Below are positions 55,091 to 64,000 of a DNA stretch of 64,000 bases, in pieces (the first letter of the stretch is position 1; each line of letters opens with the position of its first letter). The notes under the pieces are model-generated. The model saw nothing but the letters and a program-made list of their open reading frames with translations, made no database searches and was not told the origin of the DNA. Source of the stretch: Podarcis vaucheri (taxonomy: Eukaryota); the NCBI GenBank assembly GCA_965113315.1, contig OZ220363.1; one strand, written 5' to 3'. The position numbers and the translations under genes are program-made.

Positions 55091-55790
55091 CTTGTATCCT
55101 AAGACTAGGGGGTTTGGGTTTGCTTGTTTATTTGTTTGCTCTTGTACTGGGAGGTGTCAGGTTTGTTTCCAGTGAAACAGAATTGCTGTCAAGAGCAATT
55201 GTTGCTGCTGGTCTAAGCTTGAAAGCATAGGACCCAACTCCTAGGGGCTGAGGTCCCTTTGCCCTTCTCCCTTATAAAATATTTGAGGCGGCTGCCCCCT
55301 CCCCCCAGTTGATGGGCATTGCCATTCAAATGCTGTGTGTGCTGCATCTTGTGATTGATTGTGAAGAGCAGGGCTTACCTGAGCCCCCTCAATATTTATT
55401 CAAGTTGGCACTCCTGCTGCAAAGCCAAGAAAAGTCCAGGAATTTAATCAGGAATACAGCTGATGCTATAAGGAAGAGAGTGCCTGTGCAGGTGCAGAAT
55501 GCAGTTCCATCTACTAGACTAGGGACACGATCAAGGTGAGCTCAGACCCTCCAAGTGTCCCTATTTTCCCGGGACAGTCCCGGATTCACAGAAGGTGTCC
55601 TGGTTTGATCCTGGAATGCCCTGCATTTCCTTAGGACGCCCCTATTTTAATTGGGGAAATGTTGGCGGGTATGTCTTAGCCTGATACCAGTCGCGCACCT
55701 TTCTTTTGAGAACCAGTGAGCCAGCCACCTATTTGCACCTGCAGAGTCACAGAGAAAAACCTAACAACCACCAAACACTTCGTCCTTCTT

Positions 55791-56157
55791 AGAATCATAG
55801 AATCATAGAGTTGGAAGAGACCACAAGGGCCATCGAGTCCAACCCCCTGCCAAGCAGGAAACACCATCAGAGCACTCCTGACATATGGCTGTCAAGCCTC
55901 TGCTTAAAGACCTCCAAAGTAGGAGACTCCACCACACTCCTTGGCAGCAAATTCCACTGTCAAACAGCTCTTACTGTCAGGAAGTTCTTCCTAATGTTTA
56001 GGTGGAATCTTCTTTCTTGTAGTTTGGATCCATTGCTCCGTGTCCGCTTCTCTGGAGCAGCAGAAAACAACCTTTCTCCCTCCTCTATATGACATCCTTT
56101 TATATATTTGAACATGGCTATCATATCACCCCTTAACCTCCTCTTCTCCAGGCTAAA
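55791..56157 (-). mobile_element. CR1 LINE 3' end (young)
   Basis: AGAATCATAGAATCATAGAGTTGGAAG is the reversed (ATTCTATG)n CR1 tail; followed by GTCAGGAAGTTCTTCCTAATGTT typical of the CR1 ORF2 end. Confidence 0.9.
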
Positions 56158-56329
56158 GTCCTGCGTTCTTAAGTCCTGCGTTTAAAGTGCACTTTTTGTC
56201 CTAACAAACACATGGGGAACGATTCGTTGCAGCAGCAGCAGCGGTAACCCCATTATCTTGATTTCCAGAACGGGACAGGCCAGGACTGGAAAAGCGGAAA
56301 AAGTCAGCACCAAGCCCAGGTGAATGAAT

Positions 56330-56785
56330 GGAGCCAGCAGCCGCGGCCAGCGCTTGCGAGCTTCCTTTGTGGCTCCCGCCCCTCGTTCCAAGCCGGAGAG
56401 AGGGCACGTAACAATCCCAGATCCCAGTCTCTCCCTGCACGTCCGGCACTGCCCGGGAGCTTTTTCGTGCGCTGCGTTGGATCCCGCGTGTTCCCAGCGC
56501 GTGTCCTCGAGGGACGGCTGGATGAGGCGGCGAGAGAGAGAGAGGAAGCCAGGAGGGCGGGAAGGAGGGAGGCGCTGGGCGGGGGCGGAGGCGCCGCTCG
56601 CTCCCCGTGGTACGTGTGCACGCTCCCGAGCGGCATGTCCTCGCTCCTCGTATCCGGCGGCGTGTGGCGCGAGCATGGCATTTCCCGCGTGGAGCTCGGG
56701 CCCGGCCAGAAGCGGCATGCCGCCGCCGTGGTGAGGCGATGCCGCCCCGCCGGCCGGGAGCGGGAGCTGGTCTTGCGCGCAAACC
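56330..56785 (+). promoter_or_regulatory. CpG-island promoter / 5' UTR of the upstream PHD exon, with candidate HREs
   Basis: High GC and CpG density; GC boxes (GGGCGG ~56555-56590); RCGTG cores at 56405-56410 (CACGTA), 56438-56442 (CACGT) and 56611-56616 (TACGTG, followed by inverted CACGC at 56619-56623). Confidence 0.7.
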
Positions 56786-57394
56786 ATGGCCTCCTCCGGC
56801 GGGGAAGCGGCCCAGCAGCAGCCCCCGGCGGCCGCCCAGCTCCGCGGAGACTCAGTAGAAAGCATGAGGAGGATTTTCATCCACCACCCGCCCGGGAGCC
56901 GCCAGGAGGGGGGCGGAGAGGAGCAGCCTGCAGGGCCGGCCGCAGGCCCCCTCGGAGGCCTCTGGTGCCCCGCTGCGAGCCCGGCGGAGGCCCCGGGCGT
57001 CGAGGGCGCTTCGCCCTCCGCCGGCTCTCCGCCTGGCAGCAAAGCTCCTCTCCGGGAGCCCCGCAGAGATGCGCAGAGGCTAGTCTTGCGCTACGTGGTG
57101 CCTTGCATGAACGCCTATGGCTTGTGCATAGTCGACCACTTCCTGGGGCACAGGATGGCCGAGAAAATCTTCCAAGAGGTCCTGGCTTTGCACCTGAGTG
57201 ACAAATTCCAGGACGGCGCCCTGGCGAGCCAGAAGGCGGGCGGCGGCCGAGCCATTCGCGGGGACAAGATTTTGTGGGTTGAGGGCAGTGAGCCGGGCTG
57301 TGAAAATATAGGCTACCTCCTGAAAAGAATGGATAAGCTCATCATGTACGCAGATGGCAAGCTGGGGCGCTACAAAATTAGAGGAAGACACAAG
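56786..57394 (+). CDS. PHD2/EGLN1-like first coding exon (203 aa); putative alternative exon 1 of EGLN3
   Basis: Strong Kozak ACCATGG; intact ORF; C-terminal 106 aa (YVVPCMNAYGLCIVDHFLG...FQDGALASQK...IRGDKILWVEGSEPGCENIG...GKLGRYKIRGRHK) is the N-terminal half of the EGLN catalytic domain. Donor AAG|GTTAGT is phase 0 at the conserved EGLN intron-1 position. Confidence 0.85.
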
Positions 57395-57604
57395 GTTAGT
57401 AGCTTGTAAGCCCCGACTGAAGTTCACTCCGGGCTCCTCCGGAGTTTCTGATCTCCCTCTCTTGCCATTTCATGTACTCTTCCGAGTCTTAACCACGCAA
57501 TTCCTGGCCGCTCTGCTACCAGCTGCAACTCGGGCTTGGCATTTGGTCCATCCGCTCAGATCCTAACCCTAGTTCGATCGCTTTGTGAAACAACTTTAAA
57601 CCGT

Positions 57605-57794
57605 CAAAATAAAAAAATTCCTTCCAGTAGCACCTTAAAGACCAACTAAGTTGCACACTTCTTCAGATACACATGCACACAAGTGTGCATGCACACGAAA
57701 GCTCATACCAAGAACTAACTTAGTTGGTCTTTAAGGTGCTACTGGAAGGAATTTTTTTATTTTGACTATGGCAGACCAACACGGCTGTAACTGG
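57605..57794. mobile_element. Penelope-like terminal repeat (rearranged inverted pair) between the two first exons
   Basis: Same family as 9602; 13-bp TSD AACTTTAAACCGT at 57592-57604 and 57795-57807. Confidence 0.8.
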
Positions 57795-58549
57795 AACTTT
57801 AAACCGTGTAGCGTTCACAGCGTGGCAGCCCACGTGGGATTTCCTATATCCACGAATTGGAGAGGTAGTAGCGGGTGATTTTGTATGGCGGGGGGTAACC
57901 TCACTACGCTTAAAGACACGGTTTCCTTTTTTTGTTTTTCCCGCCTTCATCAAAAAGTTCCCTAGAGTTATTAACCAGGATTTGTGAGCTGCAGTTTCAA
58001 AGAGAACAAATTTTCTGAAACACTCGTGCGTGCATATGCATATATATAACCCCGAACATCTTACTTTAACGGCTCTCTCTAACGTTTATACAGTATTGGT
58101 AATTTCTGAAACGATAGTTATCTTGGCAGGCTATGAGAGTGGGCATATTTTCCTAGCTTTTAGGAGAAAAGGAATGAGGTTTAGAATCCAGGTGGTGACA
58201 AGTCAGTGAGTGCTTTTTAAACAAATCATCTGTGTTTCGAGAGGCTTTTGAAAGCCGGGAACTGGTATTCCGCACGCATGATCTTGTTTGCAAAGCGAAT
58301 TCCAGCTCTGCAATATGTTTTGTCAGCAGATGACCAGGTGTGAAAAGGGGGGGAGGATGTCTTGAAGTGGGAGAGAGAGAGAAAGAAAAGAGGGAGATAA
58401 GCACTTGTAACCTCGCTCCCCATCCCTATAGCATTAAGTTGCCAAGAGAAACTCAACTGGCACTTAACGCCCTTATACCCCCCCCCTCCGTTTGTTTACA
58501 TTGGCTTGTAGTATGTGACCGTAGTAGAAGCGTACATGCTGGGGGAGAA

Positions 58550-59422
58550 TTCCTCAATGGCGGAGACCACACCCACTCCGAGTTGTAGGCGGCGCACGAC
58601 GAACCATAAGCCGCGCCTCCTCCAGACACGCGGCTTTTCCTCTCCGCCCTCTCCCCCACGCCTTGATTCCAGCCGTGAACCCTACGCGGGTTGGACGCTT
58701 CCGGCGAAGCCCCGCCCTGCCCCCCTCCTGATTGGCTGCCCTCACGTTCCACAGGGCTGCGGGTAGGCGCGGGGAGAGATTGTCCCCGGGACGGGGCTCC
58801 ACCCACGTGGCGCTCGCCGCAGAAGTAGGAACACATTCTGCACGTAGCAGACGTATTAATCAGAGAGGGGCCATCTGCTGCCTCGGTGAAATTGAAAGGA
58901 GTTTGCAGGACTCGGCACCAAAAAAAATTCAAAAAAAATTAGGGGGAGTGATCACATCAGCAATTGCGGGGTGTTCACACACTGGTCTCCCGGCCTTAAA
59001 GCTGGTAGAAAAGAGCTGCTTCAGCTTCCTTTTCCAGCAACTGCCTCTCTGCCAAGGTGCCGATCCCCCCGCGGTATTGGGTGGAGGTCAGTCCGCGGAA
59101 GGCGTGCAGCCACCGTTCACTTCATTAGCAAGCCTTGTGTCGCCCAGGGGTTGGGAGAACCCGAGAAGGTGGCTGCTGACTGCGCTGAAGACAAAAGTAC
59201 GACTTTAGCCAAACTTTTGGGCACGCCGGTTTCTCTGACTAGCCGGACCCTGATTTGCTCTGCTCTGCTCGCTTCTCCCAAGAGTTAGGCATCGCTGCTG
59301 GCCCGTGTGGCGGATTCAGTGTGTTAGAATCGCCGATAGAAACCAGGTCTCCTGGCGCGCGCTCCGCCGCTTGGCTTGCGGCTCTTGACTTTCTGCTACA
59401 AGGGGCGAAATCAGTCGGGTTC
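58550..59422 (+). promoter_or_regulatory. CpG-island promoter / 5' UTR of canonical EGLN3 exon 1
   Basis: CpG-rich; GC box CCCCGCCC ~58710; inverted CCAAT (ATTGG) at 58731; CACGT at 58743, CACGTG at 58804-58809, CACGTA at 58841-58846. Confidence 0.7.
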
Positions 59423-59428
59423 ATGAAA

Positions 59429-59785
59429 ATGCCACTGGGACATATCATGAGATTAGACCTAGAGAGAATTGCCTTGGACTACATAGTGCCTTGTTTGCAT
59501 GACATTGGTTTTTGCTACCTGGACAATTTTTTGGGCGACTTGGTAGGAGACTGTGTCCTGGAACGTGTGAAGCAGATGCATTATAACGGGGAGCTGCAGG
59601 ATGGTCAGCTAGCCGGCAAGCGCAACGGCATCTCCAAGAGACACTTGAGGGGAGACCAGATAAAGTGGATCGCAGGCACTGAGGAGGGATGCGAGGCCAT
59701 CAACTTTCTCTTGTCACTGATAGACAGACTGGTTATGTACTGTGGAAGTAGACTTGGCAAATACTATGTGAAAGAGAGGTCCAAG
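59429..59785 (+). CDS. EGLN3: Egl nine homolog 3 (PHD3, HIF prolyl hydroxylase 3), coding exon 1 (119 aa); the rest of the gene lies beyond the window
   Basis: MPLGHIMRLDLERIALDYIVPCLHDIGFCYLDNFLG...KRHLRGDQIKWIAGTEEGCEAINFLLSLIDRLVMYCGSRLGKYYVKERSK matches the diagnostic PHD3 N-terminus; consensus donor AAG|GTAAGA. An in-frame ATG lies 2 codons upstream (59423). Confidence 0.97.
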
Positions 59786-61235
59786 GTAAGAAATTCAAAT
59801 GGGGGGAGATAGCTACTAACACTTCTAATGTAATGGGGACTTTTAATTAGGGAGCCATGCTTGAATGTTTGGGTTGTAAGGGGGTTAATATCCTTATTTG
59901 CTTTCATACTGATGCTGGGCTTAATATTTCCATCATAAACTGCAAAACACAAGTAAGCGATACCTGGGATGAGTTTTTTGATCCTCCACCCCAAGTTAAA
60001 ATCCTAAAAAAGTTTATTGTGAATATGCTCCTTTGGACTCAACTGGATTTACTTACTGGTTTAAGAATTTTTCACTTTTTCAGTGCAGCATGTGAATGAC
60101 TATAATTCACACTGGGGCAGCCAACTTGGTTTAAGTGAGATTATAACTGTAACTGGCCCTCTTGTCTCCTCCTAGAAGTGGAAATGCAGGATGTTGCATT
60201 TGTGAGGAATTTGTTTTTTAAAAATATTACTAAGAAGAATTCCAATATAGCATTGATTATACACCTGTAGAAGAGTTTCCTAGAACTACATTGGCAATTC
60301 AAAATGATTTTGAATGGTGCCAAAAGTTTGTATAAGTCCATTGCCTAATTGGATTATCCTTGCTTTCCTGTCACTTTCCACTAAGCTCCAGGTTGGGTTC
60401 TTGTGGTGGTCATATGCTGAGTGCTTGTCAGGCTCCTGAGCAGCTTAGCTTGTCTTTAGAAAGGTAATAAAGTTAATCCCTAATTTATGCACATATGTAC
60501 CAGCAGAGGACACTGCACAGCTGAGTAAATAAACAAAATCCACAGCAATTAATAAATTAATTTATGCTGAAAAGTGACCGAAGTGTGGGCCCATGCATAA
60601 ACTCCTTTTGGTTTGCATTGATCAAACTGATTGCACAGCTTCAACCTTCTGTTAGCAATCAGTTTCATACAACGTGCGCCTTTGCATGTCAGAAGTAAAT
60701 CCTATTGAGCTCAGTGGAATTTCAACTTACTCCCTGGTTAGTGGAGTTAGGATTGCAGCTGTGGAAAGCGAAACATATCTGGAAGTGACAACAAAAATCC
60801 TGATTAATGGCCATGAGAGGACGTTCTGTAACAGTAGTTAGATTGGTTTCCTTCTTCCTTAGTTTCAGACTTCATTGAAATCACCAGATAAATTATTTCA
60901 TTGCTTTTCCTTCCTTCCCTACCACTCAAGAGGTAAAGAAGTAAAATAATGTCATGCATATGTTCAGTTGAACAAAAGCAGTTTTGACAAAAGCCAGCAC
61001 ATTAGCTAGTTTTTGAAAAGTTATTCGGGACTTTCTTCCTCTCTTCTGTGTTGCTTATTATTCCAGCATCCTTCATGGTAATGAATGAATAGTTTTACCA
61101 GAACTCAACTTTAGGTAGTGACTAAGCCTACAGAAGTATATCTGTAACTCTGCTATAGGCTTAATTATTTACGGTGCAATCCAATGCTTGTCAGAAGTAA
61201 GTCTCATTGATTCAAATGAGGCATACTCCCAGGTA

Positions 61236-61589
61236 CAGTGGTGCCCCGCAAGACGAATGCCTCGCAAGACGAAAAACTCGCTAGACGAAAGGGTTTTGCG
61301 GTTTTTGAGCTGCTTCGCAAGACGAATTTCCCTATGGGCTTGCTTCGCAAGACGAAAACGTCTTGCGTTTTTTGCAAGTTTGCTTCCTTTTTCTTAACAC
61401 CATTAATACAGTTGCGACTTGACTTCAAGGAGCAACTCATAGAACACGGTGTGGTAGCCTTTTTTGAGGTTTTTGGTGATTTTTGAAGCTTTTCCAAAAC
61501 TTTTCCGACACCGTGCTTCGCAAGACGAAAAAACCGCAAGACGAAAAAACTCGCGGAACGAATTAATTTCGTCTTGCGAGGCACCACTG
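61236..61589. mobile_element. Tc1/mariner-type MITE in EGLN3 intron 1
   Basis: TIR CAGTGGTGCC(C/T)CGCAAGACGAA, TA TSD, internal GCAAGACGAA repeats; nested in an older short palindromic repeat. Confidence 0.9.
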
Positions 61590-62459
61590 TAAGTGGGTAT
61601 GGGATTAAAGTCTTTGGGTTGTGTGCAACTAACTTTGAATTAGAGTAGACCCAGTGATCCATTGCTTTTAACATCAATGGGTCTGCTCTGAGTCAAAGTT
61701 GACTACAACCCCATGATTCACAAATAGGACTTGCAACAAAATATTGCAGTGTGGACTGGGTGTATTCAGAGTTCCAGACAACAATGGCCTTTTGCAAGAC
61801 ACTCCATTCCCCCCTGGTTTTGTCTTCCCAGTCAGCCGGTGTACCATGGCTACCGAGCATGCTCAGTGAGCTAGTTGGAGGTTTTCCCTCCTCTTACTTT
61901 TTTTTGGGGGGGGGGGATATTTTACATTTTTGTGTTTCAGCAAACCTTGGGACTCTGCTGAACGTCTTATGTTTTGATGCATTTTGGCTACAGTCTAATG
62001 AGTTTGCTATTAGCATATAGAATTCTTAGATTTGCTTATGTTTATCGCAGAAGTAGAAGTTAAACTGAGTTAAAAGTGATCAACCATCACGCTGACTGCT
62101 AGTAAGTGTAGCCACAATCTGTGTACAGTTTTAGCTATCTACGTAAAGCTGTCTTAAGGTGGTGATTGTAAGCATGCTTACTAGGGAATAAATCCCGGCT
62201 GAATTAAATAGGACTTGTAAGCAAAGATGCTTAGAACCGTGGAGCACAGGAGATGGAACTTCATGGGGGAATGAACATGGAAGAGAAATCATAACACACA
62301 TTGCAGCCATAGGAAGTTACATACTGTATTCATGTTAGAAGCTGATTTAAGCCTCAGTCTTGAAAATAATCTCTGGCCACAACGATTCACACACTTAGCC
62401 AAGTCCCATTGAACTCAGTTGGACCCCTTCTGAGAAGATGTGCATAGGATGGCACTGTA

Positions 62460-63114: not shown

Positions 63115-63635
63115 CCGTATTTTTCGTCCCATAGGACGCACCGGCCCATAGGACGCACCTAGTTTTTTTTGGGGAAAACAAAGGAAAAATTTTTTTCGTC
63201 CCATAGGACGCACCGGCCCACAGGACGCACCTAGTTTTTTTGGGGGGGAATAAAGGGGGAAAAATTCCCTTTATTTCCCCTCCAAAACCAGGTCGGGGAA
63301 TCCAAACCAGGTTGGGGAACAGCGGGATGGCGGCGCTGCGCCTCCCCGCTGTCCCCCGAGCTTGTGGGGCTGCCTGATGTCTGCCCGAAGCGCGGGGCGT
63401 GCTGAAGCAGAGCGCCCCGCGCTTCAGGCAGACATCCAGAGCCTGGGGAGCCCGTAGGCTCCCCAGGCTTGCTGATAGCTTCCTGAAGCCTGGAGAGTGA
63501 GAGGGGTCGGTGCGCACTGACCCCTCTCCCTCTCCAAGCTTCAGCGAAAGCCTGCATTCGCCCCATAGGACGCACACAGATTTCCCCTTCATTTTTGGAG
63601 GGGAAAAAGTGCATCCTATAGGGCAAAAAATACGG
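63115..63635. mobile_element. pogo/Tigger-type MITE
   Basis: TIR CCGTATTTTT...AAAAATACGG, TA TSD, repeated CCCATAGGACGCAC subterminal motifs, and a ~70-bp internal tandem duplication near the left end. Confidence 0.88.
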
Positions 63636-64000
63636 TATGTCCCACGGAATATAGGAAGTGGCCCATCTAGCTCACTATTATTTGACTAACAACAGCTCTC
63701 CAAGATTTCAGGCAGGAGTCTCCCCCAGCACTACCTGAAGATGCAGACATATGCATTAGTTTTCAGTAAGGTTGATGTCAACTTTCCCAGTTGCATTATG
63801 CGTCCGCGTTTTGCATGTCACACAAAGTCACAAAGTCTTAGTAGAAGTAGAAGTGAAGAGGAAATCCCAGTCCGGTTGAAGGGAAGTCCTCTTGGCCTTT
63901 TGAAATCTTGACAAATCAAATTGAGGTGTTTATATAAAACTAGGACTAGCAACTAATCCTTATGGTAAATGTCTGCTACTCCCAAGTATTCAGGCCAAAG

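Follow-up and report, generated by a model that had tools for sequence, protein, structure and literature searches.

We found that EGLN3 in Podarcis vaucheri has two alternative first exons, here called 1A and 1B, within the window analysed (one stretch of 64,000 nucleotides). Exon 1A is a real and old alternative first exon of this gene. We put at about 0.58 the probability that two HIF prolyl hydroxylases arise from the two exons; NODD hydroxylation by the 1A form is predicted to exceed that by canonical PHD3 and to fall short of that by PHD2. The two isoforms would have the same iron/2-oxoglutarate core and different substrate-gripping halves.

The coding part of exon 1A is an open frame of 203 codons on the plus strand (56786-57394), with stranded RNA coverage. 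Its ATG at 56786 sits in the context AAACCATGG, a phase-0 donor (AAG|GTTAGT) directly follows position 57394, and the segment 57206-57394 is in frame with the ATG and forms the 3' end of the open frame. The 5' untranslated part comprises at least 56666-56785 (plus strand), as an RNA-type contig starts at 56666; sense-strand reads on this side of the exon start in the bin 56588-56734. The exon encodes a low-complexity N-terminal extension of about 92 residues, the start of which is conserved and which has a basic patch ahead of the domain, followed by the N-terminal half of the PHD catalytic domain (PHD2 residues ~189-297). Exon 1A and human PHD2 aligned gap-free across 108 residues (E 4e-37), and PHD2 residue numbering can therefore safely be used for exon 1A. 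The exon also matched the PHD1 structure 5v1b (E 4e-31), and named Podarcis EGLN3 isoform X1 proteins were 97-99.5% identical to it. A second single-exon 'EGLN3-like' model of Podarcis muralis (P0011), 92% identical to exon 1A and found on a different sequence of 63.5 Mb, is possibly a displaced copy. Pfam searches with exon 1A alone or exon 1B alone returned no family; the MYND zinc finger, the hallmark of PHD2/EGLN1, was thus not found by Pfam in exon 1A. We rejected a MYND remnant upstream of exon 1A, because a MYND-bearing EGLN1 aligned with the 64-kb window over its residues 178-295 only.

Exon 1B is the canonical first exon of EGLN3. Its coding part (59429-59785, plus strand) has 119 codons and a phase-0 donor (AAG|GTAAGA), and it was 87.5% identical to a bird EGLN3. 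Canonical human PHD3 (EGLN3) has 239 residues. Exon 1A lies about 2 kb upstream of exon 1B. The two stop at the same codon, each followed by a GT in phase 0, and are identical at 44 of 109 residues. The two exons are thus homologous and in tandem, with a start codon each and donors of the same phase, and both are transcribed in a related species. EGLN3 exons 2-5 were not found within the 64-kb window.

RNA was examined over 56000-60400 in four of the 24 listed runs, i.e. three raw RNA runs and one contig set that was guessed to be RNA; the runs were from a related species and not from the source species of the window. Coverage was seen on both first exons and not on the unique sequence between them. 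In the stranded run X23, sense depth was 2.7-7.0 on exon 1A, 3.1-7.4 on exon 1B and zero at 57911-58351, with first mates on the minus strand across both exons, which in most libraries corresponds to plus-strand RNA. Run X24 gave a low depth on exon 1A (0.3-2.6) and a depth of 1.0-12.2 on exon 1B, while the single-cell run X21 reached only the 3' end of exon 1A. In the contig set X1, one contig spanned 56830-57395 and another 58933-59786, RNA coverage of exon 1B starting at 58933. RNA coverage in a related species supports 1A as a transcribed alternative first exon, in line with the first-pass annotation. The depth peaks at 56000-56293 and 57470-57910 were rejected as EGLN3 transcripts because they are repeats, and the joint 56554-58369 was rejected as a splice because it joins AG-rich tracts and has the other mate direction. 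Interspersed repeats at 55790-56157 and 57605-57790 drew hundreds of unrelated RNA reads, and repeats at 61240-61590 and 63116-63636 resemble short elements whose ends are inverted.

Both X1 contigs extend 26 bases past the exon donor, and the exon ends share 4 bases, for a total of 30 in each case. With k = 31, which we take to be the value used for the contig graph, such 30-base overlaps are expected if exons 1A and 1B both enter one node of the 31-mer graph, i.e. one downstream exon. The contig ends thus fit with the splicing of each first exon to one shared exon 2, and we infer that both are spliced alternatively onto the same downstream exons in the source species. Database models and the tree of C-terminal halves (see below) likewise indicate that the 1A isoform uses EGLN3 exons 2-5. 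Among 173 1A-type database proteins, 95 run straight into exon-2 sequence, these being automatic predictions with many near-duplicates, and the others are mostly single-exon or partial predictions; four gene models (gecko, skink, horned lizard and carp) have 1A and 1B in tandem. Some 1A gene models (P0028-P0030, P0014, P0016, P0034) omit exon 2, with loss of two iron ligands, or end before the last helix.

Both promoters and both first exons lie in a CpG-rich region (56000-59750, unstranded). The CpG observed/expected ratio was 0.6-0.96 in all 500-base windows over 56001-59750 and 0-0.37 in the flanking windows examined. Some 55 bases before the 5'-most end of the 1A contigs lies a candidate hypoxia-response element (56611-56622, plus strand), composed of TACGTG and, after it, an inverted CACG. 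ACGTG occurs three times in 56250-56785 before exon 1A (0.37 expected, p 0.019) and four times before exon 1B (1.05 expected, p 0.027), both regions having been chosen after looking. The stretch 56607-56762, which contains the hypoxia-response-like motif and the 5' untranslated part of exon 1A, matched, at 58% (E 2e-7), an N-terminus that had been mispredicted in another genome. A mispredicted Rhineura N-terminus matched the region starting at 56640. These matches suggest that 56607-56762 is conserved promoter sequence. Ahead of exon 1B, the translation of the non-coding segment 58515-58619 matched a Phrynocephalus prediction (69%, E 6e-7), and a similar stretch was found in a Lerista model; this segment is likely a conserved promoter element of exon 1B in squamates.

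The AlphaFold model of a Podarcis 1A isoform (P0009), the domain of which is identical to that of the window exon, had a mean pLDDT of 75, with 138 residues at 90 or more. It comprised a confident domain, a disordered N-terminal extension and a beta2-beta3 loop with a pLDDT of 55-66. The model matched PHD2 structures with an E value of 4e-33 and a TM of 0.91 over 216 columns (7q5x) at ~70% identity, a likeness that is partly built in, as the alignment used for the model included EGLN1/2 rows. The predicted fold is compatible with a PHD enzyme (double-stranded beta-helix, alpha1-3, beta2-beta3 loop with R252/D254). The equivalents of the Fe(II)/2-oxoglutarate residues H313, D315, H374 and R383, which are encoded outside the window, were present in P0009, as were those of P317, R371 and R396; metal, 2-oxoglutarate and clinical-variant positions were all intact.

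Eight selectivity positions of PHD2 are given in Chowdhury et al. 2016 (PMC5007464): V241, S242, K244, I251, I280, R281, I292 and G294. Exon 1A matches PHD2 at six of them (S242, K244, I251, I280, I292, G294); at the two others it has, like exon 1B, Ala241 (PHD3-type; Val in PHD2) and Met281 (Arg in PHD2). The beta2-beta3 loop of exon 1A (PHD2 237-254; 57212-57265, plus strand; DGALASQKAGGGRAIRGD) comprises A239, A241, S242, K244, I251, R252 and D254. Helix alpha3 (57341-57346, plus strand) contributes I280, which is PHD2-type, and M281, which is not, and the alpha3-betaI loop (57374-57394, plus strand) K291, I292, R293, G294, R295, H296 and K297, of which K291 is PHD2-type and R293 PHD3-like. 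In exon 1B, the beta2-beta3 loop has 19 residues (DGQLAGKRNGISKRHLRGD, 59600-59656) and is one residue longer than in 1A, as the first-pass annotation had stated; our alignment also agreed with its assignment of PHD2 positions 280/281/292/294 as I/M/I/G in 1A and V/M/V/E in 1B. The description of the 1A determinants as PHD2-type holds for six of the eight, but not for Ala241, nor for Arg281, which was found in 0/81 1A rows (T 39, M 36, L 6). In this residue survey (81 1A-type rows from jawed vertebrates, picked by search rank and including the window), the conserved states were I251 (80 rows), I280 (74), I292 (81), G294 (78) and A241 (67), while the loop positions S242 (43/81) and K244 (46/81) vary freely. 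With so many 1A-type rows, the feature is not due to chance.

The earlier claim was that the isoform should regain NODD hydroxylation. I251, I280, I292 and G294 are, however, ancestral states: EGLN2 mostly has them, and they also occur in PHDs of hagfish and invertebrates (I251 and I292 are the common state in EGLN2, and 85 of the 96 representative PHDs, among them sequences of invertebrate type, have I292). They are thus retained rather than regained, which indicates that 1B is the derived exon. Since carp exon 1B still has I251, I280 and I292, the complete L/V/V/E combination seems to have arisen on the tetrapod side.

The kinetic data in PMC5007464 bear on the strength of the NODD activity. 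Arg281 of PHD2 bonds NODD Asp412 (supplement). The kcat/Km for NODD is 13.6 for PHD2, 1.7 for R281L (eightfold lower), 1.7 for I251L and 3.4 for I280V/R281L/I292V, and R281L has less than 10% NODD hydroxylation left in competition. The CODD/NODD ratios that we computed from the same table were 3.4, 10.4, 16.8 and 10.3, respectively; the effects of the determinants in PHD2 are not additive. In the R281L background, V280/V292 is better on NODD (3.4) than I280/I292 (1.7). Taken with Met281, these values indicate that the alpha3 pocket of 1A would resemble that of the NODD-poor R281L, in which the isoleucines are of no help to NODD. The point changes R65K and L73I took the NODD hydroxylation of PHD3 from <10% up to 25-30% (supplement of the same paper), and exon 1A naturally carries both of these states (positions 244 and 251) as well as G294. 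PHD2 S242G/K244R/I251L hydroxylated NODD alone like the wild type (77% vs 78.5%), but not in competition. Tyr113 and Lys115 of PHD3 clash with NODD in a model described in PMC10952196; exon 1A has Lys and Arg, respectively, at the equivalent positions. The 1A isoform likely has an intermediate NODD activity, above that of canonical PHD3 and below that of PHD2, with CODD still preferred; we predict it to be catalytically active and, should its behaviour be that of PHD2 R281L, to favour CODD by about 10:1. The direction of the earlier prediction (more NODD activity than PHD3) is therefore likely to be right, but a PHD2-like strength is not supported.

The first-pass annotation had also attached meaning to a Gly-rich loop and to the replacement of Gln239 by Ala. 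Position 239 proved to be variable (E 27, Q 26, A 23, K 4 and V 1 in the 81 1A rows), and the triple-Gly loop was found in three lacertid rows only. We therefore rejected both as conserved features, this being variation at the level of lineages. Gln239 of PHD2 contacts the substrate (PMC6235002) and the beta2-beta3 loop is a minor O2 route in simulations (PMC13151054). An effect of the loop or of Q239A on kinetics is possible, and nothing in the data marks the feature as selected. In cartilaginous fish, the 1A exons (P0081, P0082, P0084, P0327, P0331) have a beta2-beta3 loop 8-13 residues longer than that of PHD2.

We found 1A-type exons in squamates, turtles, caecilians, axolotl, lungfish, bichir, paddlefish, gar, bowfin and many teleosts, as well as in cartilaginous fish (rays, sharks and chimaera); most carry the annotation 'EGLN3 isoform X1'. 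Frame, start and donor are intact from sharks to lizards, with 84/109 residues identical between lizard and turtle and 68/109 between lizard and chimaera. Exon 1A thus predates the split between sharks and bony fish on this sequence comparison. We rejected a lizard-specific novelty, and the view of the exon as a feature of a hypoxia-tolerant ectotherm was not borne out. In a search with a turtle query, the best 120 of 456 matches comprised 98 1A-type sequences (assigned by motif), 19 of EGLN1-type and three unclassified. No named mammalian, bird, crocodilian or frog 1A was among these best 120 of 456 matches, which extended to bat and bird EGLN1 and included many rows without a name. This search listing is weak evidence for a loss of exon 1A in mammals and probably in birds. 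An EGLN1 model from a flycatcher (P0309) with a doubled exon was rejected as a parallel case, as its two copies are identical and likely an assembly artefact.

In a tree of 50 hand-picked N-terminal halves, in which unlabelled rows were assigned to groups from their motifs, 1A formed one group (94/93), sister to 1B at 87/88, with exon 1B on a long branch. AU tests did not reject the grouping of 1A with EGLN1 (p 0.42) or with EGLN2-like sequences (p 0.43), nor that of 1B with EGLN1 (p 0.43). In a tree of 45 C-terminal halves with a poorly resolved root, the 1A isoforms were intermixed with canonical EGLN3 by taxon and lay apart from EGLN1 and EGLN2. Mean identity of 1A was 54% to EGLN1, 49% to EGLN2 and 41% to 1B. 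The simplest reading of these sequences is that exon 1 of EGLN3 was duplicated early, before sharks and bony fish separated, and that 1A then evolved slowly and stayed near the ancestral sequence, while 1B would have diverged rapidly into the CODD-selective form. In sawfish, a protein named 'EGLN1' (P0097, P0098) lacks the MYND finger and sits on a long branch of its own, next to EGLN2 or inside it; cartilaginous fish may thus have a divergent EGLN2 or a fourth EGLN paralogue. Such a separate EGLN2-related gene in sawfish would make it less likely that 1A is a stray fourth paralogue.

How far 1A departs from PHD3 and approaches PHD2 can be read in several ways. It is distinctly unlikely that the 1A isoform is a PHD2 equivalent, hydroxylating NODD and CODD about as PHD2 does. 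The six PHD2-type residues among the eight published determinants, Lys291 and the loop length, which equals that of PHD2, would agree with this, and five of nine EGLN2-type rows have Met or Leu at 281, so that Arg281 may be dispensable in some backgrounds; yet Arg281 is missing from every 1A row and its loss is costly for PHD2 in competition (PMC5007464), Ala241 and Arg293 are PHD3-like, the MYND finger is lacking and His296 has no PHD2 counterpart. The 1A form might instead be active and as CODD-selective as canonical PHD3, the second exon serving promoter choice, tissue pattern, localisation or stability through the N-terminal extension. Against this, a single PHD2-ward change at 244 or 251 raises the NODD activity of PHD3 in the same source and 1A has both changes plus G294; moreover, the alpha3-betaI loop is far more conserved (I292 and H296 each in 81/81 rows) than regulation would need. 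We consider this possibility unlikely, even though the loop determinants are unconstrained across 1A orthologues, CpG-rich sequence containing ACGTG sites lies separately upstream of each first exon and the N-terminal extension keeps its conserved start and basic patch. Invertebrate PHDs also share I251, I292 and often G294, and, as the Trichoplax PHD serves a single CODD-like site (PMC6235002), these residues alone do not mean use of NODD.

His296, a feature absent from the first-pass annotation, was present in 81/81 1A rows. In 96 representative PHDs with an intact junction, this position (Thr296 in PHD2) was Thr in 83 and Ser in 11, i.e. in 94/94 non-1A sequences; the two others, of 1A-type, had His and Asn, the latter in a fish (P0083). 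According to simulations in PMC10003257, PHD2 Thr296 contacts CODD Ile566, two residues past the target proline, and NODD peptides have Ala at this Pro+2 position (supplement of PMC5007464). His296 is predicted to re-shape the pocket for HIF Pro+2 and could, given this contact and the Ala of NODD, shift preference away from CODD. A stronger version, in which His296 makes 1A an enzyme with a distinct specificity, disfavouring the bulky Ile at Pro+2 of CODD and preferring NODD, one HIF-alpha paralogue or a non-HIF substrate, is in our view very unlikely; the side chain may point away from the pocket, the fish P0083 has Asn, and the CODD anchor R396 is retained in the shared exons. It is scarcely credible that 1A is a separate gene fragment, a pseudo-exon or an annotation artefact: some predictions do stop after exon 1A or fuse it with 1B, and the junction with exon 2 was deduced from contig ends, but the conservation of frame, start, donor and residues from sharks to lizards and the exon-bounded sense RNA contradict it. 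A bolder form of the preferred reading (two first exons for two hydroxylases) is tentative and rather doubtful. It holds that in most jawed vertebrates other than mammals EGLN3 also contains a fourth HIF prolyl hydroxylase, reached by an ancient promoter switch, that this enzyme prefers a particular ODD or HIF paralogue because of its His296 pocket, and that mammalian PHD3 is the CODD-selective remnant left after loss of the exon.

The gene is the same as that for human PHD3, with 1B as the orthologous first exon, exons 2-5 in common in gene models, and the shared A241 and non-Arg 281. In contrast, 1A replaces the whole N-terminal half, adds about 92 N-terminal residues, has a loop one residue shorter and carries S242/K244/I251/I280/I292/G294 and H296. 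With human PHD2 (EGLN1) it shares the 108 gapless residues, the loop length and six of eight selectivity residues; it differs by the lack of MYND and Arg281, by Ala for Val241 and His for Thr296, and by the PHD3 C-terminal half and tail. PHD1 (EGLN2) similarly has a long non-MYND N-terminal extension and mostly I251/I280/I292/G294, but is encoded by a separate gene, groups apart by its C-terminal half, has Thr296 and is 49% identical to 1A. Variable first exons on a constant region are known from UGT1A, GCNT2, the clustered protocadherins and PGM1. As in these genes, the first exons of EGLN3 are duplicated, have their own starts, code for the part that recognises the substrate and continue into common exons; unlike them, EGLN3 has only two, the swap cuts through a single dioxygenase domain and one exon is apparently missing from mammals. 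RefSeq/UniRef models from non-mammalian vertebrates named 'EGLN3 isoform X1' (for example XP_028576813.2, XP_053883979.1, XP_043929826.1, XP_072896132.1) represent the same isoform, annotated automatically, and single-exon predictions of 1A are often misnamed EGLN1-like. In the open-access literature, to which our search was confined, we found no description of the origin, spread or function of 1A. The isoform is thus already in public annotation and apparently undescribed in the literature.

The picture of vertebrate oxygen sensing with three PHDs comes from mammals. If the 1A isoform is active, studies of egln3 in fish, amphibians and reptiles measure or knock out two enzymes rather than one CODD-selective feedback enzyme, and one of the two escapes any edit or primer placed in exon 1B. 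Because the catalytic C-terminal half is identical in both forms, the exon pair is also a domain swap provided by nature, which makes NODD versus CODD selectivity directly testable. For the species that carry it, the second first exon likely provides an extra oxygen sensor, which is predicted to be broader in its action on HIF than mammalian PHD3 and narrower than PHD2.
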